DNA of 64,000 nucleotides from Bacteroidota bacterium (GTDB lineage Bacteria > Bacteroidota > Ignavibacteria > UBA10030 > UBA6906): assembly GCA_031402435.1 (NCBI GenBank), contig JANNSJ010000058.1, forward strand, positions 65,588 to 129,587, read 5' to 3'. Below the pieces are notes generated by a model, which saw only the letters and a list, made by a program, of their open reading frames with translations, did not search any database and had not been told where the DNA came from. Shown here piece by piece: positions 1 to 51,126 of the stretch. The position numbers and the translations under genes are program-made. Positions within the stretch are counted from its first letter, which is position 1; the number at the start of each line of letters is the position of its first letter.

Positions 1-219
1 GAGGAAATCGAACGCCGGAAGAAAAAGGCGGGCATGTCGTTCGACAGGATGGAGAGCTCGGGGAAGGAATTCTATGAGCATGTGCGACATGGCTATCGTG
101 AGATTGTCCGGAGCGAGTCGCAGCGTTGTGTCACGATCAACGGGATGCTCACCGTAGAGGAGATTGCACGGGACATCTGGCAGCATGTAGAAAAGAAGTT
201 GACAGTCGTACATCAATAA
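1..219 (+). CDS. tmk: Thymidylate kinase, C-terminal fragment (gene starts upstream of the window)
   Basis: Open frame from base 1. The C-terminal sequence GKEFYEHVRHGYREI...VEEIARDIW matches the Tmk C-terminal region (FHERVR.GY motif). Confidence 0.6.
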   Translation, partial: EEIERRKKKAGMSFDRMESSGKEFYEHVRHGYREIVRSESQRCVTINGMLTVEEIARDIWQHVEKKLTVVHQ

Positions 220-236
220 TCCGAGGGAGAAGATAG

Positions 237-1907
237 ATGAAGCGCATACTGGGGAATAGGGTTGTGCGAAACGTTTTCTTGATGAGCATCGGCGCCATCC
301 TGTTCGTTGTGGTTGTCGGCTTTGTCGGTCCGACGGACAGTGAGTACTTCCTGAAGATCAACAAGGGCATTGATGTCTTCGGGCGGGTGTACAAGGAAAT
401 CACGATGAACTATGTTGACGAAGTCGATCCCGAAAAATTCATGGAGGCCGGCATCGATGGAATGCTGGGCTCGCTTGATCCGTACACAGTCTACATCGAC
501 AAGGAGAATGGCGATGAAGTAGAGTTGCTGACGACGGGAAAGTATGGCGGCATCGGCGTTACAATCGGTCAGCGGGATGGCGCAATCCAGGTCATCACTG
601 TGATGGATGGATACTCCGCGCAACGACAGGGCATTCTCCCGGGCGATAAGATCCTCGATGTGGATGGCCTCAAAATTTCCAGCAAGAAACCGGATGAAGT
701 CAGGGCGTTGACACGGGGCGAGCCCGGAACGGAGACACGCGTGACAATAGAACGGGAGGGGGAGAAGGCGCCTCTCACGTTCACGCTTATCCGCGAAGAG
801 ATCCAGCTGAAGAATGTAACATATTCGGACCTCTCGCCGCAGGGCATTGGCTACGTACGTCTCGAACGCTTCTCACGTGCAGCATCGGATGAAGTGCGCC
901 AGGCAATTCAAGCAATGAAACTGAAGGGTGAAGTAAAAGGAATGATTCTTGACTTGCGCGGCAATCCCGGTGGCTTGCTGGAATCTGCCGTTGGCATCGT
1001 CAGCAAATTTGTTCCGCGCGGCAGTCTGATTGTTACAACCAAAGGGCGACGGAACGAAGCAGAGCGACAGTATAATTCTCTTGAAGAGCCCCTGCTTCCC
1101 GCGACGCCACTTGTTGTTCTCACCGACCGGAACAGTGCAAGCGCAAGTGAAATTGTTGCGGGTGCATTGCAGGATCTGGATCGAGCGTTGATTGTTGGCA
1201 CACGCAGCTTCGGCAAGGGCCTCGTCCAGACGGTCGTCCCGCTTCCGTATGACTCGCAATTGAAAATCACCACGGCGCGCTACTACACGGCCAGCGGACG
1301 CAGCATTCAGGAAATCGACTACATGCACAAAGACCGAAACGGTGTATTCGCGACTGTTCCCGACAGCCTGAAGCGCATGTACAAGACTGCCAACGGAAGA
1401 AAGGTGTATGAATACGGCGGCATCACCCCGGACTCGACCGTGAAGGAAGATGAGTTCGGTCCAATGATCAAGGAACTGTATCGCCGGTCGATGTTCTTCA
1501 AGTTTGCGAACAGCCACATGGCCGATCACAAGAGCCAGGCATACAACGGCATGACGGATGCAATCCTTTCATCCTTCAAGAAGTATCTGGATGATCAGAA
1601 GTTTGATTACCAGGAGGAAGCAGACGGCAAGGTGAAAGAGATAAAAACGATTGCAGAACGCGCGCATTACAGCAAGGAAGTGCTCGACGATCTCGACCTT
1701 CTCAAGACAGCGATGGAGAAAGAGAAGTCCCGCGGTTTTGACCGGTACAGAGACCACATTGTGCACGAACTGGATATCGAATTCATGGCGAGGGTAAAGG
1801 GCGAGCAGGGAAGAATTGCAGCGTCATTGAAAGGTGATACACAGTTTGACACGGCTGTTGCTCTCTTGAAGGATCAACGTCAACTTGCCCGCAAGCTGAA
1901 AGGATAG
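237..1907 (+). CDS. C-terminal processing (tail-specific) peptidase, S41 family, with PDZ domain
   Basis: 556 aa with an N-terminal TM/signal segment and a PDZ-like region. S41 catalytic motif LDLRGNPGGLL and downstream SASASEIVAGALQD, followed by the conserved K. Confidence 0.85.
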   Translation: MKRILGNRVVRNVFLMSIGAILFVVVVGFVGPTDSEYFLKINKGIDVFGRVYKEITMNYVDEVDPEKFMEAGIDGMLGSLDPYTVYIDKENGDEVELLTTGKYGGIGVTIGQRDGAIQVITVMDGYSAQRQGILPGDKILDVDGLKISSKKPDEVRALTRGEPGTETRVTIEREGEKAPLTFTLIREEIQLKNVTYSDLSPQGIGYVRLERFSRAASDEVRQAIQAMKLKGEVKGMILDLRGNPGGLLESAVGIVSKFVPRGSLIVTTKGRRNEAERQYNSLEEPLLPATPLVVLTDRNSASASEIVAGALQDLDRALIVGTRSFGKGLVQTVVPLPYDSQLKITTARYYTASGRSIQEIDYMHKDRNGVFATVPDSLKRMYKTANGRKVYEYGGITPDSTVKEDEFGPMIKELYRRSMFFKFANSHMADHKSQAYNGMTDAILSSFKKYLDDQKFDYQEEADGKVKEIKTIAERAHYSKEVLDDLDLLKTAMEKEKSRGFDRYRDHIVHELDIEFMARVKGEQGRIAASLKGDTQFDTAVALLKDQRQLARKLKG

Positions 1908-3515: not shown

Positions 3516-5809
3516 GGAAACCGCTTCATCGCCGGGAGCGATGGTTCCTTATCGTGTTGCTTGTGTTCTCCGTCTGCCTGCGTGTAGTGTTTCTGCTTCA
3601 GGTACACGACAATCCCTTCTTCAACAATCCCACATCTGACGCATACTACTACGATGCACAGGCGCAATCGATTGCTGCGGGTGATGTTCTTGGCAGGGAT
3701 GTCTTCTTCCGCGCGCCGGGGTATCCCTACTGGCTCGGACTCATCTATGCTGCTTTCGGACACAGCTATCTGGCAGTTCACGTTATTCAACATTTGCTTG
3801 GTGTAGTTGCGACCCTTCTGCTCTACTTGCTTGCGCGCCGATTATTCAATCCAACAGTCGCAGGTGCCGCTGGCGTGCTTATGGCGTTCTACCCCGTGTT
3901 GATGTATTTCGAAGGCCAGTTGCTCTTCGATTGGTTCCTGACGTTCCTGTGTCTGTCGTGGTGTCTACTGCTGTATCACGCCAGAGACAGCTCGACGCTA
4001 TGGCGCTGGTTTTTTGTAGGTCTTCTCTATGGAGTCATCTGTGTTACTCGCCCGACGTTTCTGCCGCTTGCTATTCCGCTATTTGGGTATGAGATCTGGA
4101 GATGTTTCAAGGTAGATGGTAAGGGGAAAGCGTTGCGCCTTGGCGGTGTACTGATAGCTGGCATTGCTCTCGCCATTCTTCCGGTAACAATTCGCAACTA
4201 TGTTGTGGCAAACGACGCAGTGCTCATAGCATCGCAGGGGGGCATCAACTTCTATATCGGGAACAATGTTGATGCGGATGGATACACTGCGCGAATCCCC
4301 ACCGATGCCGGAGCAAGTTGGGAAATTGCCGAGATGTCATTGTACGTTGAGAAGATGGTCGGACATCGTCAGACTCCTTCCGAGGAATCAAACTTCTGGT
4401 ATGCAAAAGGGATGGAGTTCATCTACCACCATCCGGTACATTTCGGAACGCTTCTCATCAAAAAATTCTACCTCTTCTGGAATGCGATGGAGATTCCGAA
4501 CAACCTGAACTTCTACACCTTCTCGCAATACTCGTGGCTTCTTCGTCTATTGCCGGTGGGGTTCTGGTGTGTCGGTCCGCTTGGAGCACTCGGGATGATT
4601 GTTGCGTGGAAGGCCCGTCGCGGGCGCACCATGATTGCGTTCATACTGATGTATTGCGCGGTAATGATAATGTTCTTCGTGTGCGACAGGTATCGGCTTC
4701 CCGTTGTGCCGTTGCTCTGTGCCTTCGCCGGCTACGCATTGGTTGTTTTCTTTGACTGGATGGTACAAAGGGAATATCGACCGATGCTGATTTCTGCAAC
4801 GGTGTTGGTCTTGCTTGCTTTGTTCGTCAACAGCAACGCATATCAATTGGAACGGGAGGAGCCCGTCCATCAATTCTACATGCTCGGCCTCATCGAGATG
4901 AAACATGAGAACTACGCCGCAGCACTCTCACATTTTGAGCAGGCGTCTCGCTACGGCAAACCGATTCGCAATCTGTATCTGCACCTGGGGTTTAGTGAGT
5001 TAATGCTCGGAAAGAAACAGCAAGCACAGGAGAGTTTTCATAAGGAGCTCTCGTATCATCCTGATTCATATGGGGCTCTGGCGAATCTTTCATCTCTTTA
5101 CCTCGGTGAACGGTTGCTTGATTCGGCGATTGTGTATGGCAGCAAGGCGATTGTTGTGAGGCCGTTCATGCCTGCCGCGTATATTTCTGTCGGCCAGTCA
5201 TACTATTTGCGTCACAGCCTGGAACAAGCCGAGTCGGTTTTCGCCATAGGCTCAGCGAAGTGCGGCAACGCGTTCCTCTATGGCAACTATCTGCTTGGAG
5301 GCATTCACCTCGAACGCGGAAATGCAGCGCGTGCAGAAGAGTTCTACCGTTCGATTGTGCAGTCTGCTCAACAAAACAGCGGGGCTTCATATGAGGCGGA
5401 GTTCCTGATGCCTGAGGAAAAGAGAACGGGGATTGATCCGCTCATGTTGCGAGCAAAGGCACTCTACGGACTCGGGCACGTTTTTGCAGCACGGAAACAG
5501 GTTGACAGTGCGGCAGCATATTTTCACATGGCGACTCAACTTTTCCCCGCTCTTGCCGATGCATGGGCAGACCTCGGTGTCGCGTTCCTTCAGTTGCGCC
5601 GGTTTGCCGATGCAGATTCTGCAATGCAGAGGGCATTGAAGCTGCAACCCGAGAATTTCATGTATTGGTACAATTACGGCTCAATGCTCGGCGCAACGCG
5701 AAGACTGACCGAAGCGAGAGAGGCATTCAGCAAAGCACTTGCGCTACAACCAGATTTTGCACCGGCGCAGCGTGATCTCGACTTTGTCAACCTGGCTCTG
5801 GGGAAGTAG
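3512..5809 (+). CDS. GT39/PMT_2 (ArnT/protein-mannosyltransferase-like) membrane glycosyltransferase fused to C-terminal TPR repeats
   Basis: 765 aa. About 430 aa of multi-TM N-terminal domain with a DAYYYD motif in the first loop. The C-terminal approx 300 aa has TPR-like repeats (YGKPIRNLYLHLG, AWADLGVAF, YWYNYGSML). There is a 4-bp start/stop overlap with the upstream exonuclease. Confidence 0.6.
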   Translation: MRKPLHRRERWFLIVLLVFSVCLRVVFLLQVHDNPFFNNPTSDAYYYDAQAQSIAAGDVLGRDVFFRAPGYPYWLGLIYAAFGHSYLAVHVIQHLLGVVATLLLYLLARRLFNPTVAGAAGVLMAFYPVLMYFEGQLLFDWFLTFLCLSWCLLLYHARDSSTLWRWFFVGLLYGVICVTRPTFLPLAIPLFGYEIWRCFKVDGKGKALRLGGVLIAGIALAILPVTIRNYVVANDAVLIASQGGINFYIGNNVDADGYTARIPTDAGASWEIAEMSLYVEKMVGHRQTPSEESNFWYAKGMEFIYHHPVHFGTLLIKKFYLFWNAMEIPNNLNFYTFSQYSWLLRLLPVGFWCVGPLGALGMIVAWKARRGRTMIAFILMYCAVMIMFFVCDRYRLPVVPLLCAFAGYALVVFFDWMVQREYRPMLISATVLVLLALFVNSNAYQLEREEPVHQFYMLGLIEMKHENYAAALSHFEQASRYGKPIRNLYLHLGFSELMLGKKQQAQESFHKELSYHPDSYGALANLSSLYLGERLLDSAIVYGSKAIVVRPFMPAAYISVGQSYYLRHSLEQAESVFAIGSAKCGNAFLYGNYLLGGIHLERGNAARAEEFYRSIVQSAQQNSGASYEAEFLMPEEKRTGIDPLMLRAKALYGLGHVFAARKQVDSAAAYFHMATQLFPALADAWADLGVAFLQLRRFADADSAMQRALKLQPENFMYWYNYGSMLGATRRLTEAREAFSKALALQPDFAPAQRDLDFVNLALGK

Positions 5810-24913: not shown

Positions 24914-27181
24914 TTAGCTTTCAGGTAGTCTCTCTCTATAAGTTTTTAGGATGTCGGGGGTGACTTCTTCGGCTGACACAAGGCTGTAATGCTTTTCTGA
25001 AACCACCCGTACCCCGTCCACTGTGTTCTCAAACTCGAAAATGGCAATCTGGTTGTTCGACATGAATTGGGTGCCAATTGCTCGACAAATGAGAGAGGGA
25101 AACTTCGCCGCACACATAGCGAAGTCCTGCTCAATCTGCACAACACTGATCTTGTCTTTTCCACCCTTTGCCTGGACAGGCAAAACATAATGGACACCTT
25201 TCTTGTCAATCCCAACATACACTTCGTCAGTTTCAACTTGCCCAATCTTGGGTGCGGTGGTCCTGAGGTGGTTCTGAAGAGAATAACATGTTATACCGGT
25301 GAAAACATCCACGAGTCTGTTATAGCGGAGCTTTGCCAGGAGAGCCTGTTCATCGTCGAGAGTGTAGAGAGAGATAAGTCCGGGTGTCGAGTCTGGAATC
25401 TTGGTGTCCGCAAGCATCTGGCTAGGAACTATGTCCTTTTCGCCAATGAGAGCAAAGCAGTATTTTGAACGCCCGGCAGGTCGAATAATCCACTGCTTTC
25501 CTGCTGGTGCTTTACATGTTATGGTTTCGGGGAGAGATGAACGGTAACGGAAGCTGTAGATGATATCACCCAGGTTCTTTGGTAGAACGATAGACAGCTT
25601 CTTCGCGACCCGCTCTATTTCGTTACGAGCAAATGGGATCTCGGTCATTCCCTTCTTAAAGTGGCCAAGAAAGATTTGCTCAATAATTTGAGTGTATCTG
25701 TTTTGAGTTGTCTTCATCTGTCCTTCCTTTTCTCCTGTCTGATATTGCGATAAGGGTTCGGTGACCCTGCCGCTTTTGCCTGGCCATCGCAAAACTAGAA
25801 CTTCCTCTCTCAGTTGCTCTTTGGTTGCGGTCGCGATGCGAGTTCGAAACAGATCGAGACTCACAACCTCGTACCCAAGGGATGCGGCGATGTCTGCAAG
25901 AAGTTGACCCGTACGGATCATAACGCGCAAATAAGAAGCTTGATCTCCGACTACGTATGCTAGGTATGCACCCGGCCGAAGAGCATTCCTCAATTCAGCG
26001 AAGTGCCTTGTCATACCTCCAAAGTAAAGTCTGGTGACACGGTGGTACAATCGCTCGAACCCACTTGTCTTACCAAGCTGAATACGTCGTCTTTCGATTT
26101 CTCTCGCAAGCCCCTCGACTTTACTATTTGAGGCAACCCACTGATCGTCGTTATCAACCGAGTACACATTTCTTGTGTTGGATCGAAGAAGATGCTGTTT
26201 GAGGTCTTTTAGGTCCTGCTTATTCTTGATCAGTCCCAGAATGACAGATTCAAGACGAGTAGTACGAGTATAATCTTTTTCATTTGGATATGGCGGTGAG
26301 GTGATAACGGCACTCACGGATTGTGGTTTGAGAATCTGATGCAGTTCGCGGGAGTCAGCTTTGTGAATAGAGGTTGGTGTGGCAGCGAATTCTCGGAGTG
26401 AGGTCAGATCCTTTGAGATTGACCTTACTCCTGACAACCATGTTCTGATCACAGGAGCGTCATACTTTATCTTTCCGATTCCCACCTCTGGTCCAAAGTG
26501 AAGGTTTCCAATCGATGACACAAGAGCCTTGCCCAAAGCGAGTACCTCGTGTTCATAGAAACGATTGTCACGGAAATCTTGAATGGTATCAAGGAGAACC
26601 AGAACCTTGTGCAGAGGAAGCGGGCTAATAGAATCTTTTAGAAGGATAGCTTGGCCCTGCTCCGGGAGTGCCCGATACGAAATGCTGGGAAATGCCGGCT
26701 TGCCGGTAAAGTCATTAACGAGTTGCAGATCATCGTCCGTGATGCCTTCTTCGCGAAGCCGACGCCTCGCGTCTACAGCAACCTCTTCGGCGTGATCTCT
26801 TAATCCCTCAGGATCTATATCCCAGATTGTTTTTGTCTTGCTTGCAAAGTAACATATTGGATTTGCCTCAATACCGATGCTGGGGATGCCAAGCTTTTTG
26901 CATTCAACGTTTGTTGTTCCCGTTCCGCAGAATGGATCAAGCGTCCAATCAGATCCTTCAAGTCCAAAACGGGTGACATATTCACGAACAAGATGAGGTG
27001 GAAATGAAAGAACAAAACGATACCAGTCATGAGCTGCACCGTCCATCGGTGTAACTTTGTTTAACTGCGAGTTGTTGATTGTCGGGAAAGAGAGCACGGG
27101 AGTTGAGGGATGAGGATCACACTTCAATTGTACGAATCTAACGAGAGGACTCGTCACAAGCAAGCGCCTTTCACCAAACAT
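24914..27181 (-). CDS. Fused DNA methyltransferase (N6-adenine/N4-cytosine, alpha-like motif order) plus C-terminal PD-(D/E)xK-like nuclease domain; putative single-chain restriction-modification enzyme
   Basis: Motif X-like HDWYRFVLSFPPHLVREYV, motif I DPFCGTGTT, motif IV SPPY about 215 aa later, then a post-IV LRPGAYLAYVVGD. The C-terminal approx 285 aa contains TDEVYVGIDKKG...VQAKGG, which resembles the DEVYLIDIKTAKPNAGG core of the standalone ORF at 50344..51126. An alternative start is at 27046 (MDGAAHDWYRF). Confidence 0.6.
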   Translation of the reverse strand: MFGERRLLVTSPLVRFVQLKCDPHPSTPVLSFPTINNSQLNKVTPMDGAAHDWYRFVLSFPPHLVREYVTRFGLEGSDWTLDPFCGTGTTNVECKKLGIPSIGIEANPICYFASKTKTIWDIDPEGLRDHAEEVAVDARRRLREEGITDDDLQLVNDFTGKPAFPSISYRALPEQGQAILLKDSISPLPLHKVLVLLDTIQDFRDNRFYEHEVLALGKALVSSIGNLHFGPEVGIGKIKYDAPVIRTWLSGVRSISKDLTSLREFAATPTSIHKADSRELHQILKPQSVSAVITSPPYPNEKDYTRTTRLESVILGLIKNKQDLKDLKQHLLRSNTRNVYSVDNDDQWVASNSKVEGLAREIERRRIQLGKTSGFERLYHRVTRLYFGGMTRHFAELRNALRPGAYLAYVVGDQASYLRVMIRTGQLLADIAASLGYEVVSLDLFRTRIATATKEQLREEVLVLRWPGKSGRVTEPLSQYQTGEKEGQMKTTQNRYTQIIEQIFLGHFKKGMTEIPFARNEIERVAKKLSIVLPKNLGDIIYSFRYRSSLPETITCKAPAGKQWIIRPAGRSKYCFALIGEKDIVPSQMLADTKIPDSTPGLISLYTLDDEQALLAKLRYNRLVDVFTGITCYSLQNHLRTTAPKIGQVETDEVYVGIDKKGVHYVLPVQAKGGKDKISVVQIEQDFAMCAAKFPSLICRAIGTQFMSNNQIAIFEFENTVDGVRVVSEKHYSLVSAEEVTPDILKTYRERLPES

Positions 27182-27204: not shown

Positions 27205-29190
27205 ATGATTTCAGCCGTGAACGTATCGCTCTCATTTGGCGGACGAGGTCTCTTCGAAGAGATCTCCTTCCGTATTGGTCCACACGACCGTATCGGACTT
27301 GTTGGCTCGAACGGTACGGGCAAAACCACACTTCTTCGCATCCTTATCGGAGAAACTGTTCCCGATAAGGGCGAGATCGCAAAAGCCAAGTACGTCACCG
27401 TTGGCTACCTGCCACAGGAAGGAATGCACGTTGAAGGCCGGACGCTCTACAAAGAAGTAGAAACGGCGTTTGGCGATGTGCTGGAAGCGCAAGCACGGCT
27501 CGAAGAAGTTCACGAACGCATGGGGATTGTATCTCATGAGGACGAGGAATTTGCGGAGTTACTGGAACTCTACGGCGAGCTGCAACACAAAGTTGAAGAC
27601 AGCGACGCGTTCCGCATGAAGGCGAAGATTGAAAAAGTGCTGCTCGGCCTCGGTTTTTCTTCTGACGATACAGACCGCCAAACATCCGAGTTCAGTGGTG
27701 GCTGGCAGATGCGTATTGCCCTTGCAAAACTGTTGCTCATCCAACCATCGCTCTTGCTTCTCGATGAACCGACGAATCACCTTGATCTCGATTCATTGCA
27801 GTGGCTCGAAGAGTATTTGCAGTCCTACGAAGGCGCCGTCATCGTTGTCTCCCACGACCGCCGCTTCCTTGACAACATGACGACGAAAACGTATGAGTTG
27901 AGCCTCGGCAAACTCACCGAGTACAGTGGCAACTATAGTTATTTTGTGGTGCAGAAGGAGGAGCGAAAGCAACTCACGCTTTCGGCATTCCGCAATCAGC
28001 AACAGCAGATCAAGCAGACGGAGCAATTCATCGAACGGTTCCGTTACAAGGCAACGAAGGCGAGGCAGGTGCAGAGTCGTATCAAGCAGCTTGAGAAGTT
28101 GGATCTTGTAGAGATCGAAGACGAAGAGAGCGGAATACGGTTCAATTTCCCTCCTGCCCCCGCCGGTGGACGTGTTGCGATGGAGCTGAAGGGAATCCGC
28201 AAAAGCTACGGTGACAAGAGAATCTTCAACGGCATTGATTTCGACATCGACCGTGGCGACCGTATCGCCTTTGTTGGCGTGAACGGCGCCGGGAAGTCAA
28301 CACTCTCGAAGATCATTGCCGGCGTGGAGCCGTTTGAAGGCGGTGAACGCAAAGTCGGGTATAATGTGATCGTGTCGTATTTCGCCCAGCACCAGGCTGA
28401 TGAACTTAACCCGAAGAACGATGTGTTGGGAACGGTGGATGAGGTCGCTACGGGAGAGATCAGGAAGTCGCTCAGGAATTTACTCGGCTGCTTTCTTTTC
28501 AGTGGCGATGATGTGTTCAAGAAGGTCGGCGTGCTTTCCGGCGGCGAGAAGAGTCGACTTGCACTTGCCAAAATGCTTCTACAGCCATGCAACCTCATCA
28601 TCATGGATGAGCCGACGAACCATCTGGACATGCGCTCGAAGGCGGTGATGCAGCAAGCGTTGATGAGATTTGAAGGGAGCTACGTTATCGTGTCTCACGA
28701 CCGTGACTTCCTCGACCCGATTGTTAACAAGGTTGTGGAGTTCAGCAAGGGCCGCATCAGGGCGTATCCCGGCAATGTGAGTGATTACATTTACGCGAAA
28801 CAAAAGGAACAGAACACCGCGCAGGCAGCAACAGTTTCTGTTCAGCAGCAGAGAAGGAAGGACGAGCCAAAACTTTCCGACAAGGAAAGAAAGCGCGTTG
28901 AAGCCGAAGAACGACAGAAGCGTTCCCATTTGACAAAACCCCTTCAACAGAAGATGTACAAGTTCGAAAAGGAAATCGAAGCAAAGGAAAAGCAAAAGGC
29001 CGAATTCGGGGAACTGATGGGTCATGTTGACTTCTACAAAGATGGCGAGAAGGTGAAGCGGGTGACCACGCAATACAAAGCGTTGGAAGCCGAACTGGCT
29101 GATATCTATTTCAAATGGGGAGAAGTGACGAAGGAGTTGGAGAAGCTCAACGGAGAGTTTGATAAGAAATCCGGGATGGCCAGAGACTGA
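27205..29190 (+). CDS. ABC-F family ATPase (tandem ABC domains, no TMD; translation-factor type, Uup/YheS/EttA-like)
   Basis: Two Walker A motifs (GSNGTGKTT and GVNGAGKST), two signature motifs (LSGGWQMR and LSGGEKSRL), and a long coiled-coil C-terminal extension. Confidence 0.85.
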   Translation: MISAVNVSLSFGGRGLFEEISFRIGPHDRIGLVGSNGTGKTTLLRILIGETVPDKGEIAKAKYVTVGYLPQEGMHVEGRTLYKEVETAFGDVLEAQARLEEVHERMGIVSHEDEEFAELLELYGELQHKVEDSDAFRMKAKIEKVLLGLGFSSDDTDRQTSEFSGGWQMRIALAKLLLIQPSLLLLDEPTNHLDLDSLQWLEEYLQSYEGAVIVVSHDRRFLDNMTTKTYELSLGKLTEYSGNYSYFVVQKEERKQLTLSAFRNQQQQIKQTEQFIERFRYKATKARQVQSRIKQLEKLDLVEIEDEESGIRFNFPPAPAGGRVAMELKGIRKSYGDKRIFNGIDFDIDRGDRIAFVGVNGAGKSTLSKIIAGVEPFEGGERKVGYNVIVSYFAQHQADELNPKNDVLGTVDEVATGEIRKSLRNLLGCFLFSGDDVFKKVGVLSGGEKSRLALAKMLLQPCNLIIMDEPTNHLDMRSKAVMQQALMRFEGSYVIVSHDRDFLDPIVNKVVEFSKGRIRAYPGNVSDYIYAKQKEQNTAQAATVSVQQQRRKDEPKLSDKERKRVEAEERQKRSHLTKPLQQKMYKFEKEIEAKEKQKAEFGELMGHVDFYKDGEKVKRVTTQYKALEAELADIYFKWGEVTKELEKLNGEFDKKSGMARD

Positions 29191-46952: not shown

Positions 46953-48659
46953 ATGATCAAATCCCTCTTCATAAAAAATTATGCGCTGATTGAAGAGCTC
47001 TCCGTTGAGTTCTCCAACGGGCTTGTCATTATTACGGGGGAAACCGGAGCAGGCAAGTCGATTATCATCGATGCGTTGGGATTGATTATCGGTATGCGTG
47101 CAAGTGCGGATGTTGTTCGGGCAGGCAGCGACAAGGCAATCGTTGAAGGCGTGTTCGCTATTGCCGGGAACAGGAAAGTCAAAGCCCTTCTCAATGAAAA
47201 TGAACTTGACACTGTTGATGACCTGATTATCCGCAGAGAAATCTCGGCAAAGGGACAGAGCCGGTGCTTTGTCAATGATACTCCCATTACGATTGGTTTG
47301 CAGAAACAGATAGGCGAACTCCTCGTTGACCTCCACGGTCAGCACGAACACCAATCACTATTGCGTCGCGAGACACATGTTGAGATGCTCGATGACTTTG
47401 GTGGACTTGCAGGCTTGGTTGAGGAATTCCATTCGACATTCAAAAGGCTCGGTGATGCATCAAGCCAAATGGAGGAGATGCGCGCCCGTGAAGAACGTTT
47501 GAGAGAGAAGCGGGAGTTCTACCAGTTCCAGATACAGGAGATTGATGCCGTTGCTCCACTTGCCGGAGAAGAAGAGCAGCTCGAAGCGGAACTGAAGATT
47601 CTTGAGAACGCGGAAACACTCTACACCGCCACGGGCAAGATCTATGAGATGTTGTATGAAGGCGAGCAGTCCATTCACGATCTGCTCGTGCTGGTGCGGA
47701 ATCAGATTCACGATCTTGCTGCAATTGACAAGCAGTTCGAATCGGGAGCGAAGGAAAGCGAATCGGCGGTGGCGATTATCAGTGAGCTGGCGAAGTTCAC
47801 ACAAGGTTACAACGCAAAGATCGAGTTCAATCCCGAGAGGCTTGAAGCAATCAGGCAGCGACTTGCCCGCCTCACACAACTGAAACGCAAGTATGGTGGC
47901 TCTCTCGACAGCGTAATCGCTCATCGTGAGAAGATCGGTCAGGAGGTTGCACTTGCCGAGAACTTCGATGAAGTGATTGCGAAGCTCGTTGCCGAAGTTG
48001 AGTCTGCCCGTACAGAATGCGCAACGCTCGCCCAGCGATTGACGACGAAGCGCCGAGAGACGGCAAAGAAGATCGACAAAGGAATCGTTGCCGAGTTGGT
48101 AAAGCTTGGCATTCACAACGCAACCTTTGCAACGCAGATCAATCAGGTGGAGATGGAGAACGGCTCGGAACCGTTCATCCTGCAGGGCAAGAAACACATT
48201 GCGCTCAACTCCCGAGGTTGCGATGACGTGGAGTTCCTGATTTCAACGAATATGGGTGAGGATGTAAAGCCGTTGGTGAAAGTCGCTTCCGGCGGCGAAG
48301 TCTCGCGCATTATGCTTGCACTCAAGAGCATCCTTGCAAAGTCGGACAGGCTGCCGGTGTTGATTTTTGATGAAATTGACGTGGGCGTAAGCGGACGTGT
48401 GGCGCAGGCTGTTGGACTGAGCCTGAAGAGCCTCTCATCGTTCCACCAGGTTGTTGCCATTACGCATCTTCCGCAGATCGCCGGACTGGCAGACACACAC
48501 TTTGCAGTATCCAAGGCCGAAGATGGCAAACGCACCAAGACCACCATGCGCAAGCTCTCACTCGATGAGCGCGTACGAGAAGTTGCCAAGTTGATGAGCG
48601 GAGCGGAAGTAACGGAGGCGGGAATGGTTGGAGCAAAAGAATTGATGGGGATGAAGTGA
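46953..48659 (+). CDS. recN: DNA repair protein RecN
   Basis: 568 aa. N-terminal Walker A ITGETGAGKSIIIDAL, a long coiled-coil, and a C-terminal signature/Walker B region (SGGEVSRIMLAL...LIFDEIDVGVSG). Confidence 0.9.
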   Translation: MIKSLFIKNYALIEELSVEFSNGLVIITGETGAGKSIIIDALGLIIGMRASADVVRAGSDKAIVEGVFAIAGNRKVKALLNENELDTVDDLIIRREISAKGQSRCFVNDTPITIGLQKQIGELLVDLHGQHEHQSLLRRETHVEMLDDFGGLAGLVEEFHSTFKRLGDASSQMEEMRAREERLREKREFYQFQIQEIDAVAPLAGEEEQLEAELKILENAETLYTATGKIYEMLYEGEQSIHDLLVLVRNQIHDLAAIDKQFESGAKESESAVAIISELAKFTQGYNAKIEFNPERLEAIRQRLARLTQLKRKYGGSLDSVIAHREKIGQEVALAENFDEVIAKLVAEVESARTECATLAQRLTTKRRETAKKIDKGIVAELVKLGIHNATFATQINQVEMENGSEPFILQGKKHIALNSRGCDDVEFLISTNMGEDVKPLVKVASGGEVSRIMLALKSILAKSDRLPVLIFDEIDVGVSGRVAQAVGLSLKSLSSFHQVVAITHLPQIAGLADTHFAVSKAEDGKRTKTTMRKLSLDERVREVAKLMSGAEVTEAGMVGAKELMGMK

Positions 48660-50344
48660 AAAAGACAATTAAGAAATCTCCTAAGAGGAAGTCAGCCAAG
48701 CCCAAGGGTAAGAAAGTAACGTACTCTAAAGCACGCGCCGTAAAGCGTCTGGTCAAAGAAAATCAAGACTTCATGACCTTCAAAGAGGCAAGCGAATGGG
48801 CGACCAATCACCTAAAGAAGAGCGTTACGACTTCCAACATCTCCTACTTAGTTCAATACGGACGAGTCAAGAAGTATGGAGAAAACGGTACAACAAGAAT
48901 ACGAAAGGCTGATCTTGTAAAATACTATGAATCCTACAACGGTCGGCGAGAGGTTTCCTGGAAGAAACAGCTAGGCGGCGACTTGAACTGGCAGCTCTCG
49001 TTTGATCAGGTAAGGGAAATAGAAACAACAAAACATGTCCATCGATTGCACCCGTATAAGGGAAAATTTATACCTCAACTCGTTGAGTACTTCCTTGATG
49101 ACCACATAGACTCTTTCAAGAAGGAAACCTATTTTTCAAAGGGCGATATAGTCCTTGATCCGTTTTGTGGTAGCGGAACTACTCTTGTTCAAAGTTCTGA
49201 ACTCGGACTTCATGCAATCGGAATAGATGTTTCAGAGTTTAATGCTCTGATAACAAATGTCAAAATTGGAAAGCATGACCTCTCCTTACTTCGGGACAGC
49301 ATTAATACGATAACTGAATCCTTGAAGAAATTGTTGTCTAGCAGTCATTCTGTTCAGTTCGAAAGTAGATTACTTGAAGAGTTATACAAGTTCAACAATC
49401 TGCACTTTCCAGTTCCTGGGTACAAATACAAGGTGAAGCGCAGAGAGATTGACGAGGACAAGTATGGCAACGAGAAGGCGAACAAATTCTTACCAATCTT
49501 TACGAAGCTTGTAAAAGAGTATAAGATTGCGCTCAGACAGGATCACCCATCGCAGACCTTCTTGGAGAAGTGGTATTCGGAACACGTTTTGAGCGAAATT
49601 GGCCACGTGTTCGAAGAAATTAAGAGAGTAAAGGAAAAGGGGACGCAAGATGTTCTACGAATCATACTTAGTAGAACAATTCGTTCCTGTCGTGCCACTA
49701 CACACTCTGATCTCGCTACCCTCTTAGAACCGGTAACTTCAACATATTATTGTACAAAGCACGGAAAGATATGCAAGCCACTATTCTCTATCCTGAAATG
49801 GTGGGAGTTTTATTCTCAGGATACTATCAAGAGGCTGGATGCTTTTGATAAGCTGAGGACTCTCACCCATCAACTCTGTCTTACTGGCGACAGTCGAACA
49901 ATGGATATAGCAAGCGAGCTCGAATCAATTTCTCCCCAGATGGCTGAGATGGTACAGGAAAAGAAGATAGATGGGATTTTTTCGAGTCCCCCGTATGTTG
50001 GCTTGATTGACTATCATGAACAGCACGCTTACGCGTACGATTTGTTCCAGTTTGAACGGAGAGATGAACTAGAAATCGGCAGGATGTATCGCGGCCAAGG
50101 AAAGGAAGCAAGAGACTCCTATGCCAAGGGGGTTTCTGATGTTCTAAACAACTGCAAGCGCTTCCTTGCTAAGGATTACGATGTTTTTCTCGTTGCCAAC
50201 GATAGGTTTAATCTGTACCCAGGTATTGCTGCGATGAGTGGAATGCAAATCGTAAATCAATTCAAACGACCAGTTTTGAATAGAACAGAGAAGGACAAAG
50301 GAGCATATTCCGAGATCATCTTTCATTTGAAGTCTGAGTCATAA
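48656..50344 (+). CDS. DNA methyltransferase (N6-adenine/N4-cytosine; alpha-like motif order) with Lys-rich N-terminal extension; low-GC island
   Basis: GTG start overlapping the recN stop (GTGA). Motif X-like HPYKGKFIPQLVEYFL, motif I LDPFCGSGTT, motif IV SSPPY about 280 aa later, and a post-IV block FLAKDYDVFLVAND. This is a paralogue of the methylase half of 24914..27181. Local GC is about 40% against about 53% in the flanks. Confidence 0.7.
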   Translation: MKKTIKKSPKRKSAKPKGKKVTYSKARAVKRLVKENQDFMTFKEASEWATNHLKKSVTTSNISYLVQYGRVKKYGENGTTRIRKADLVKYYESYNGRREVSWKKQLGGDLNWQLSFDQVREIETTKHVHRLHPYKGKFIPQLVEYFLDDHIDSFKKETYFSKGDIVLDPFCGSGTTLVQSSELGLHAIGIDVSEFNALITNVKIGKHDLSLLRDSINTITESLKKLLSSSHSVQFESRLLEELYKFNNLHFPVPGYKYKVKRREIDEDKYGNEKANKFLPIFTKLVKEYKIALRQDHPSQTFLEKWYSEHVLSEIGHVFEEIKRVKEKGTQDVLRIILSRTIRSCRATTHSDLATLLEPVTSTYYCTKHGKICKPLFSILKWWEFYSQDTIKRLDAFDKLRTLTHQLCLTGDSRTMDIASELESISPQMAEMVQEKKIDGIFSSPPYVGLIDYHEQHAYAYDLFQFERRDELEIGRMYRGQGKEARDSYAKGVSDVLNNCKRFLAKDYDVFLVANDRFNLYPGIAAMSGMQIVNQFKRPVLNRTEKDKGAYSEIIFHLKSES

Positions 50345-51126
50345 TGGCACTATCAAAGATTCAAATTCAGCACGTTGAAGCTGTTCTTCGAGACAGCCTT
50401 AGGAACAAGTTTCAGAACTACAACCCAGAGCCAGCCTCAATGCCATTTCATACAAGGCTGCTTGGTAAGGATAGACTGGCTCTATATTCATTCATACATT
50501 CGCTCAGCACGAATTTTGGGACTTCCATATTTGAACCCGTGGCAAAAACGCTCGCATCCACAAGCTTTAAGCTGGCTGAATCTCATGTGACGGCAGGAGT
50601 TGAAATAAGCACTGAGGCTCAGCGCGAAATTCAGAGAATAATGGATGGTCTTACAACTGCTACGTCAATGCCTAACAAGAAAGAAGAAACTGAGAGGCTT
50701 CGTCGAGTTTGCAGAAAGGGCAAAATGGTCGATATTAATCTCACCAAGGTTGATGTGAAGCTGGTTTCTCACGATGATGAGGTTTATTTGATTGACATCA
50801 AAACGGCAAAACCAAATGCAGGGGGATTCAAAGAATTCAAAAGAACTTTACTAGAATGGGTTGCCACTACTCTTGCGGCCGATCCCAAAGTTCAGGTCAA
50901 AAGTATAATTGCGATTCCTTATAACCCATATGAGCCACAGCAGTATAATCGCTGGACAATGCGTGGTATGTTGGATTTGGCGGAAGAACTAAAAGTTGCA
51001 GAAGAGTTTTGGGATTTTGTGGGGAATCGCGGAACTTATGTTAGTTTACTCAAATGTTTTGAGAGAGTTGGGATTGAGCTTCGTGTCGAGATTGACGAAT
51101 ACTTTTCTAGATTTAAAGGATTGTAA
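50344..51126 (+). CDS. Putative type II restriction endonuclease (PD-(D/E)xK-like), cognate to the upstream methyltransferase
   Basis: 260 aa. Its ATG overlaps the methylase stop (TAATG). Candidate catalytic core HDDEVYLIDIKTAKPNAGG (D...(D/E)xK). It is similar over its length to the C-terminal domain of the fused protein at 24914..27181. Same low GC as the methylase. Confidence 0.45.
   Translation: MALSKIQIQHVEAVLRDSLRNKFQNYNPEPASMPFHTRLLGKDRLALYSFIHSLSTNFGTSIFEPVAKTLASTSFKLAESHVTAGVEISTEAQREIQRIMDGLTTATSMPNKKEETERLRRVCRKGKMVDINLTKVDVKLVSHDDEVYLIDIKTAKPNAGGFKEFKRTLLEWVATTLAADPKVQVKSIIAIPYNPYEPQQYNRWTMRGMLDLAEELKVAEEFWDFVGNRGTYVSLLKCFERVGIELRVEIDEYFSRFKGL

Follow-up and report, generated by a model that had tools for sequence, protein, structure and literature searches.

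A probable single-chain restriction-modification enzyme formed by joining the methylase and nuclease genes of an orthodox Type II operon head to tail

Introduction

In orthodox Type II restriction-modification (R-M) systems, the methyltransferase (M) and the restriction endonuclease (R, or REase) are normally expressed separately, with a timing that lets methylation precede cutting in a new host. The canonical Type IIG/IIC/IIL enzymes (MmeI, BpuSI, Eco57I, BcgI and others) are single polypeptides of REBASE subtype IIC. Their nuclease is N-terminal, their methylase is of the gamma class with an NPPY motif, a single specificity module, C-terminal in the MmeI/BpuSI type, serves both activities, and cleavage takes place at a distance (PMC4081073). 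BtgZI, an active Type IIS/IIC enzyme (GCGATG 10/14), is described as an N-terminal alpha methyltransferase followed by a C-terminal PD-QxK nuclease (PMC4081073). It is one characterized precedent for the methylase-first order.

A 2014 survey considered the gene-fusion route to Type IIC rare, at 0.9% of Type IIC systems. In the engineered RM.Eco29kI, an orthodox Type IIP REase and its methylase were joined head to tail by replacing the stop/start junction; the product is active in both functions, and its authors predicted natural counterparts, which in their words “could exist in nature” (Mokrishcheva et al. 2011, PMC3039593). A putative fused m4C R-M gene of Roseiflexus sp. RS-1 has been called a “rare pattern” (PMC10855626).

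In this report, we describe a gene that probably encodes a single-chain R-M enzyme, formally of Type IIC, derived by head-to-tail fusion of the genes of an orthodox M->R operon. It represents an ordinary restriction-modification system in a rare natural form.

The fused gene and its relation to described systems

The gene lies at 24914..27181 on the minus strand of the window (the whole stretch of 64,000 nucleotides that was analyzed), and all of its features detailed below are on that strand. In the ORF list it is a single, uninterrupted frame of 755 codons from the first ATG, with its stop at 24914-24916. Translation probably begins at the GTG of codon 29 (27095..27097), since the N-termini of the closest homologs (P0002, P0003 and P0004; MLTFP) fall on the column of GTG 27097 in our alignment A1; the predicted protein would then have 727 aa and begin MLSFPTINN. 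At the level of the gene, both catalytic domains reside in one uninterrupted, conserved ORF, as in Type IIC systems.

Both halves are orthologous to the two-gene PDLC03404 system, which consists of an alpha-order SPPY methylase and a REase of ~265 aa. They share with it the M->R order and the catalytic motifs; the difference is that no stop codon separates M from R here, and one polypeptide therefore carries both. The preliminary description of this DNA had proposed a candidate single-chain R-M enzyme with the methylase first and the nuclease last. The match to PDLC03404, the conserved D...(Q/E)xK motif and the occurrence of stand-alone C-half homologs in M->R operons bear this out, and more strongly than the grounds first offered. 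It had also considered the domain order atypical. This is correct, but the order has a precedent: BtgZI has been described with the same order and the same Q-for-E variant (PMC4081073).

Like the canonical Type IIG enzymes, the protein is one polypeptide that would fall in REBASE subtype IIC. It differs from them in its reversed order, its alpha-order SPPY methylase and the separate, presumed DNA-recognition part of each module, and no Eco57I, MmeI or N6_Mtase Pfam domain was found in the 755-aa protein. The protein is not a new integrated design of the IIG kind; in it, the two genes of a very common, orthodox M->R system are joined end to end. The Roseiflexus gene is likewise a natural one-ORF fusion of a SPPY m4C-type methylase with an orthodox REase, but its nuclease is of the GIY-YIG type (Eco29kI/DraR1-like, CCGCGG) and therefore comes from a REase family unrelated to the C-terminal half described here. 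The Deinococcus DraI m4C system was rejected as a relative on the same ground, its REase being GIY-YIG. RM.Eco29kI is artificial, has the R-M order and combines a GIY-YIG nuclease with a C5 methylase, whereas the present gene is natural, has the M-R order, combines a PD-(D/E)xK nuclease with an amino-methylase, and has been kept by selection across several phyla.

The methyltransferase half

The N-terminal module (aa 29-467; 25781..27097) is a DNA amino-methyltransferase with alpha motif order. Residues 37-460 match PADLOC MTase_II models, the best being PDLC03224 (E=2e-37). Pfam N6_N4_Mtase (PF01555) matches aa 54-108 only, and the aligned part is the C-terminal, motif X/I portion of this beta-class model, as would be expected if the motif order is permuted. 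The motif X-like segment, HDWYRFVLSFPPHLVREYV (aa 51-69; 26975..27031), has ten invariant residues in A1 (H51, W53, Y54, R55, F56, V57, L58, P61, H63 and V65). Motif I, the AdoMet-binding loop DPFCGTGTT (aa 82-90; 26912..26938), lies inside the Pfam match, and D82-T89 are invariant. The motif IV catalytic tetrapeptide SPPY (aa 295-298; 26288..26299) is embedded in the invariant stretch T294-Y304 (TSPPYPNEKDY).

Between motifs I-III and IV lies a variable insert (aa ~115-285; 26327..26839) that is less conserved than its flanks in A1 and mostly helical in the structure model. The definition of the alpha class places the target-recognition domain (TRD) at this location (PMC2890505), and the insert is presumed to serve that role. 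The order X (aa 51-69), I (aa 82-90), (II-III), TRD, IV (aa 295-298) is that of the alpha class. The earlier reading of an alpha-order motif X, motif I, long insert and SPPY is thus upheld, with SPPY measured ~205 aa past motif I.

The product of this module is most likely N4-methylcytosine. This prediction is founded on the invariant SPPY at motif IV, a sequence held to be diagnostic of m4C methyltransferases (PMC10855626), and on the fact that C5-cytosine methylases partner homologous REases. In the full-length model, the methylase half adopts the class-I SAM-methyltransferase Rossmann fold. Its best Foldseek matches are Trm11 and other class-I methyltransferases (E=2e-4, prob 1.0), and no solved DNA methyltransferase close to it appeared in that comparison.

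The restriction endonuclease half

Residues 492-749 align to positions 2-259 of the PADLOC REase_II model PDLC03404 (E=2e-117), a REBASE-derived Type II REase model of 260 positions; a stand-alone family member from a plasmid matches the same model with E=1.6e-136. The preliminary description had held that the C-terminal part is not methylase-like and contains TDEVYVGIDKKG...LPVQAKGG, and both statements are accurate: the part in question is the last ~265 aa, with the motif at aa 651-674. No REBASE-style prototype name for PDLC03404 was found in cluster names, plasmid annotations or papers on enterobacterial small plasmids, and a protein search seeded with the plasmid REase returned only the annotations “endonuclease” or “hypothetical protein”. 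The label “Type II REase” thus rests on PADLOC curation and gene context, and we refer to this half as a putative Type II REase.

The module is modeled as a winged helix followed by a PD-(D/E)xK core carrying D652...Q670-A-K672 (pLDDT 95). The winged-helix-like sub-domain (aa ~492-600; 25382..25708) is presumed to be the DNA-binding and recognition part of the REase. The nuclease core (aa ~610-745; 24947..25354) holds the putative catalytic motif (25166..25228), with E611 (25349-25351) on the preceding helix. In a comparison of 38 members of the family, both fused and stand-alone, E611, E650, D652, Y655 and K672 are nearly invariant; the half combines a PD-(D/E)xK fold with conserved acidic and lysine residues that are putatively catalytic. 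Position 670 is Q or E (VQAK or VEAK) among fused and stand-alone members. The Q of the present protein replaces the usual acidic residue of the (D/E)xK triad, although some relatives have E. No structure has been solved for this REase family.

The main clue in the preliminary description was a similarity between the C-terminal half and the product of a 260-aa ORF at 50344..51126, and failure of the two to align was named there as grounds for rejecting its proposal. The ORF does adjoin a methylase as had been stated, being situated directly after a second SPPY methylase. Its product, however, is a member of the TdeIII family (Pfam PF09520, E=2e-87), and the claimed match fails: BLASTP gives E=51, hhalign gives a probability of 0.2%, and PF09520 (RE_TdeIII) has no match to the 755-aa protein at E<=1. 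Kinship with this ORF is ruled out by all three methods; as judged from these comparisons, the two REases belong to different families.

Fused, split and plasmid-borne relatives

Of 77 related genomes (species loci), 69 encode the two modules as separate genes that abut in the order M->R. In these 69 split loci, the methyltransferase is 53-63% identical to the N-terminal half and lies directly upstream of a ~265-aa REase that is 59-66% identical to the C-terminal half; the M stop and the R start overlap or are at most ~30 nt apart. At least 120 full-length fused homologs were found (712-783 aa, 94-98% coverage, 58-72% identity). Their domains are conserved while the linker varies, and they share no conserved neighboring gene. 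In a neighbor-joining tree (without bootstrap), fused forms are spread over several lineages, a pattern implying that fusion or fission has occurred repeatedly.

Given that the split genes abut or overlap, and that M and R share a frame in 17 of the 69 loci, a single base error could mimic a fusion. The chance that a sequencing or assembly error removed the stop between two ordinary adjacent genes is nevertheless negligible, as the identical 755-aa protein is recorded from two contigs, the syntenic relative L009 is fused likewise, and the fused homologs (at least 120, all distinct) come from independent samples and have the same architecture. The homologs and the syntenic relative together rule out this artefact. 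On the evidence of the homologs, the low dN/dS, the predicted flexible linker and the retained internal start, the fusion appears to be functional.

Both halves are under purifying selection. Relative to L009, dN/dS is 0.096 for the M half, 0.026 for the R half and 0.22 for the linker, values that are approximate because dS is high (0.9-2.3). The R half is 89% identical to that of L009 and is the most constrained part of the protein. This constraint bears on the very improbable scenario in which the gene encodes an orphan methyltransferase with a dead REase remnant, the nuclease having lost activity after the fusion and the C-terminal half being only an extra DNA-binding or regulatory domain. 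Q670 in place of the canonical acidic residue would fit such a remnant, as would the public annotation of fused homologs as only “DNA methyltransferase”; moreover, an inactive R would make 1:1 tethering to M easier to tolerate. Against it stand the strong constraint on the C-terminal half and the near-invariance of E611, D652 and K672. Further, QxK is the majority form in the stand-alone REases of intact M->R operons, and BtgZI is reported to be active with the Q variant (PMC4081073).

REase homologs also occur without this type of methylase. Stand-alone forms (53-56% identical) come after unrelated C5 methylases in two settings, enterobacterial ColE1-type plasmids and a Vsr-M-R operon of Sinorhizobium pSymA. 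Genetically, the REase is linked to a methyltransferase: fused to it here, and in relatives beside alpha-order SPPY enzymes (69 loci) or C5 enzymes. The latter association argues that the REase is autonomous and that its site contains cytosine.

These facts also weigh against a BtgZI-like Type IIS/IIC mechanism. According to that mechanism, to which we assign a low probability, the methylase TRD would provide all recognition of an asymmetric site, and the C-terminal PD-QxK domain would be only a cleavage head, acting at a fixed distance and dimerizing transiently in the manner of FokI. By its description, BtgZI does have the same N-terminal alpha methyltransferase and C-terminal PD-QxK arrangement (PMC4081073). 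However, BtgZI cuts outside an asymmetric site, whereas the C-terminal half of the present protein is a complete stand-alone gene in ~90% of related loci, carries its own winged-helix module and, being found beside unrelated C5 methylases as well, must be able to locate its site independently. Two methylases are usually required for asymmetric IIS sites, and there is one methylase per system here. The autonomy of the C-terminal half, its winged helix and the presence of only one partner methylase suggest that the site is orthodox and probably palindromic.

A proposed mechanism and its implications

We propose that the enzyme arose when the M and R genes of an orthodox Type II operon were joined in frame, head to tail. 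The N-terminal ~440 aa would constitute an entire amino-methyltransferase of alpha order, including a target-recognition insert of its own, and the C-terminal ~265 aa a complete, autonomous REase composed of a winged helix and a PD-(D/E)xK core with a D...QxK site. The two would be joined by a flexible tether of ~20-25 residues, in which the original C-terminal tail of M runs into the original N-terminus of R. Each module would find the same, probably palindromic and cytosine-containing, site alone. The methylase module, acting as a monomer, would protect host DNA, and the nuclease modules of two molecules would pair so that both strands of unmethylated incoming DNA could be cut.

Making R and M at an obligatory 1:1 ratio is expected to endanger the host. 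The natural fusion imposes just such 1:1 synthesis, yet selection keeps it in several phyla; it therefore offers a ready-made test of how much M/R regulation matters. It is also a test of the behavior of a dimeric nuclease when tied to a monomeric methylase. Further, these genes show that the gene-fusion route to Type IIC has been taken repeatedly in nature, whereas earlier demonstrations of it were limited to an engineered enzyme (Eco29kI). Neither Pfam nor NCBIfam has a model for the family, whose members carry only the annotations “DNA methyltransferase” or “hypothetical protein”; its restriction half is therefore invisible in the routine annotation of many environmental genomes.

The linker and a possible internal start

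The inter-domain linker (aa 468-491; 25709..25780) corresponds to the former methylase C-terminal tail and the former REase N-terminus, and it varies in length and sequence in A1. The full-length model has two folded modules joined by a low-confidence tether, with pLDDT <50 at model residues 445-464; the linker is predicted to be flexible.

Close to the junction is an in-frame ATG (Met489, 25715-25717) preceded by a Shine-Dalgarno (SD)-like element, AGGAG/AAGGAAGGA (25721-25736), the whole spanning 25715..25736. Of 111 fused homologs, 106 have a Met at the equivalent position. In the window gene and in L009, L010, L011 and L025, it is preceded at 6-8 nt by SD-like elements, and the site is kept in three lineages. 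Met489 and its SD-like site may be a relic of the start of the ancestral R gene, or a start that is still used.

One consequence of the latter could be that the fused ORF is a two-output gene, yielding the tethered M-R protein plus free R by internal initiation, and an evolutionary toggle. We consider this rather unlikely. If it were true, the tether could keep most nuclease modules as low-activity monomers beside the methylase, and a single-gene R-M system would gain a built-in safety delay without a C-protein. The switch between fused and split forms would then require the gain or loss of only one stop codon, and its repetition would represent adaptive tuning of restriction strength across phyla.

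Genomic surroundings

Scans for promoters, terminators and repeats around the fused gene yielded nothing above chance, and the repeat scan found no flanking repeats of the kind that mark a mobile element. Two statements of the preliminary description about the surroundings hold: the gene is transcribed divergently from an ABC-F gene, which starts at 27205, and its GC content is slightly below that of the flanks (0.47-0.49 inside the gene and 0.50-0.53 outside).

Architecture of the fused protein

The fused gene is a single ORF that runs from 27181 to 24914 on the minus strand, with 755 codons from its first ATG. All of the motifs quoted in the preliminary description are present in the product, namely HDWYRFVLSFPPHLVREYV (aa 51-69), DPFCGTGTT (aa 82-90), SPPY (aa 295-298), and TDEVYVGIDKKG…LPVQAKGG (aa 651-674). 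The motifs run X–I…insert…IV, which by the definition in PMC2890505 is the alpha order. Pfam returns nothing beyond a partial N6_N4_Mtase match (aa 54-108) to the C-terminal portion of this beta-class model, as is expected under a permuted motif order. The reported lower local GC content (0.47-0.49 within the gene vs 0.50-0.53 in the flanks) and the divergent ABC-F neighbor (start at 27205) were also borne out. The first 28 codons (27098..27181, minus strand; MFGERRLLVTSPLVRFVQLKCDPHPSTP) are absent from the closest homologs, which begin at the alignment position of a GTG at 27097; the annotated length of 755 aa is thus probably 28 residues in excess. This suggests that the true translation start is that GTG (codon 29), which would give a 727-aa protein with the N-terminus MLSFPTINN.

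A full-length predicted model (mean pLDDT 81) comprises two folded modules connected by a joint of ~20 residues with pLDDT <50. The methylase module finds structural matches only among generic class-I SAM methyltransferases having the same linear order, e.g. Trm11.

The C-terminal half as a restriction endonuclease

In a PADLOC search, aa 492-749 align over the whole length of PDLC03404, a Type II REase model of 260 positions (E=2e-117), and the N-terminal half matches many MTase_II models. At the level of sequence, the C-terminal region qualifies as a genuine restriction endonuclease, though of a different family than had been supposed. The preliminary description had matched it to the 260-aa ORF at 50344..51126, which falls in the TdeIII family of REases (Pfam PF09520, E=2e-87). 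Both similarity tests were negative (BLASTP E=51; profile-profile probability 0.2%), and the motif resemblance therefore goes no further than what (D/E)xK strands generally look like. Similarity between the window's two methylases is confined to the motif X/I region (E=8e-8), and they match different PADLOC models. The reading of the protein as a candidate single-chain R-M enzyme, methylase first and nuclease last, was right; only the similarity proposed for the TdeIII-family ORF fell.

That ORF is part of another Type II R-M system, independent of the first (48656..51126, plus strand). Its 562-aa methylase, an SPPY enzyme of alpha motif order, matches PADLOC model PDLC03249 at full length (E=8e-235), and the stop codon of the methylase gene overlaps the ATG of the REase gene. 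The pair is squeezed between a recN-like gene (end 48659) and a cysS-like gene (start 51127) with hardly any intergenic space.

Among fused and stand-alone members, E611, E650, D652, Y655 and K672 are nearly invariant, and position 670 is Q in the majority and E in some (VQAK/VEAK). The conserved residues map to the canonical helix and to the second and third core strands; the active site is a putative D…(Q/E)xK. The C-terminal half also has a winged-helix module, with structural matches to MCM8-WH (6.4), cullin-WH, E2F-4 and DpnI-wH (5.8). Foldseek agreement was weak (AdnA nuclease, ACE1, NucS), structure comparison yielded no whole-chain match to any solved REase, and a sequence search of the PDB gave no match.

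Origin of the fusion

A search with the C-terminal half only returned 1174 cluster representatives, many of them stand-alone proteins of 250-290 aa, and at least 585 loci, spread over many phyla, emerged from a scan of species genomes. Of the best 80 of these loci, 77 could be evaluated: two separate genes are present in 69, seven are clean fusions, and the state of one is ambiguous. The window's gene is thus the fused version of a very common orthodox system in which a methylase gene is followed by a separate REase gene (M→R). In the split loci, the upstream methylase is 53-63% identical to the N-terminal half and the adjoining REase 59-66% identical to the C-terminal half; their junction is a stop/start overlap (−4 or −1) or a gap of up to ~30 nt, and the two genes share a frame in 17 of the 69.

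At least 120 fused proteins (712-783 aa; query coverage 94-98%, identity 58-72%) were found in assemblies of Bacteroidota, Acidobacteriota and Verrucomicrobiota, labeled only “DNA methyltransferase” or “hypothetical protein”. Both halves are strongly conserved in the alignment, and aa ~468-491 vary in length and sequence. The nearest relative, L009 (a Chitinophagales MAG), carries the same fused gene in the matching position, between O-antigen-ligase-like and ABC-F genes. In the comparison with L009, the linker has a dN/dS of 0.22, the methylase half 0.096 and the nuclease half 0.026; since dS is high, these values are approximate. The fusion is real and selected. It needs no partner gene, as the neighborhoods of three fused homologs have nothing in common.

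On an unbootstrapped NJ tree, the fused forms fall into ~3-5 groups that differ in linker style. Fused lineages are no closer to each other's fused proteins (63-71% similarity) than to split systems (66-75%), which points to repeated fusion, or fission, presumably through stop-codon loss or gain. Five members of 340-420 aa (P0121, P0123, P0125, P0133, P0135) have the REase domain at the C-terminus and 70-155 additional N-terminal residues; these may be fused proteins cut short where a contig ends, or they may have some other architecture.

A methionine occurs at a fixed spacing before the N-terminal “NRY” anchor of the REase in 106 of 111 fused homologs (10-13 residues in most, 4-5 in the window's sub-clade). 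Its frequency there is 7.1%, vs 1.6% overall, despite the poorly conserved linker around it, and the position is that at which stand-alone R genes start. In the window, the internal ATG (25715-25717, minus strand) has AGGAG/AAGGAAGGA upstream. SD-like elements at 6-8 nt upstream are present also in four other loci (L009, L010, L011, L025); both Verrucomicrobial loci examined lack one. This arrangement would be either a relic of ancestral R-gene initiation or a start still in use, giving some free R protein.

Probable autonomy and target site

Stand-alone homologs of the C-terminal half (identity 53-56%, coverage 97%) occur in two other settings. In the first, the REase lies just 3' of a C5-cytosine methylase on 4-5 kb ColE1-type plasmids of Klebsiella, Salmonella, E. 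coli and Citrobacter. The second is a Vsr–C5-methylase–REase operon on Sinorhizobium pSymA. These C5 methylases are unrelated to the N-terminal half (E=1.8). A REase family that pairs with two unrelated methylase classes would have to recognize its site unaided; we thus regard the enzyme as probably autonomous. The predicted target would have to contain a protectable cytosine, which would fit the N4-methylcytosine expected from the invariant SPPY. Since every system has a single methylase, the site is probably a palindrome.

L006 (NZ_CP083635.1) is a 4,267-bp ColE1-type plasmid, found in many Salmonella and Klebsiella records, on which the REase homolog is labeled “hypothetical protein” and the methylase is seemingly absent. 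It is missing from the gene table but present across the record origin (3988..4267 + 1..968), and is 99% identical to the Citrobacter C5 methylase. The operon for a Vsr-domain protein, C5 methylase and REase in L008 (2663..5777; S. meliloti KH46 pSymA, NZ_CP021824.1) is unannotated, the PLSDB table showing no features there; the REase encoded there shares 55.6% identity with the window's C-terminal half.

Relation to known systems

BtgZI has been named as the one known exception to the nuclease-first order (PMC4081073): an alpha-class methylase comes first, followed at the C-terminus by a PD-(D/E)xK variant having Q for E. Compared by description only, the two proteins are alike in domain order and Q variant, but BtgZI is a Type IIS, distal cutter, whereas the window's protein is, by context, a complete orthodox REase tethered to a methylase. 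An engineered Eco29kI R–M fusion is still active in both functions, and its restriction of phage is 100-fold weaker than that of the two-gene system; natural counterparts were predicted in the same paper (PMC3039593). A survey of 2261 genomes called fusions rare, 0.9% of Type IIC systems resembling two-gene Type II (PMC4176335), and a brief mention of a Roseiflexus fusion of an m4C methylase and a GIY-YIG REase calls it a “rare pattern” (PMC10855626). We encountered no earlier account of this fused M-R family in our literature search. The protein is best seen as the product of an ordinary M→R operon whose two genes have fused, recurrently and under selection, rather than as an enzyme of novel integrated design.

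In the Verrucomicrobiota loci L004/L005 (homolog P0109), an MmeI/Eco57I-type Type IIG/IIL gene (1..1740; >1100 aa; Pfam N6_Mtase, MmeI_Mtase, Eco57I) precedes the fused M-R gene by ~4 kb, so that one neighborhood holds two single-chain R-M enzymes whose domain orders are opposite.
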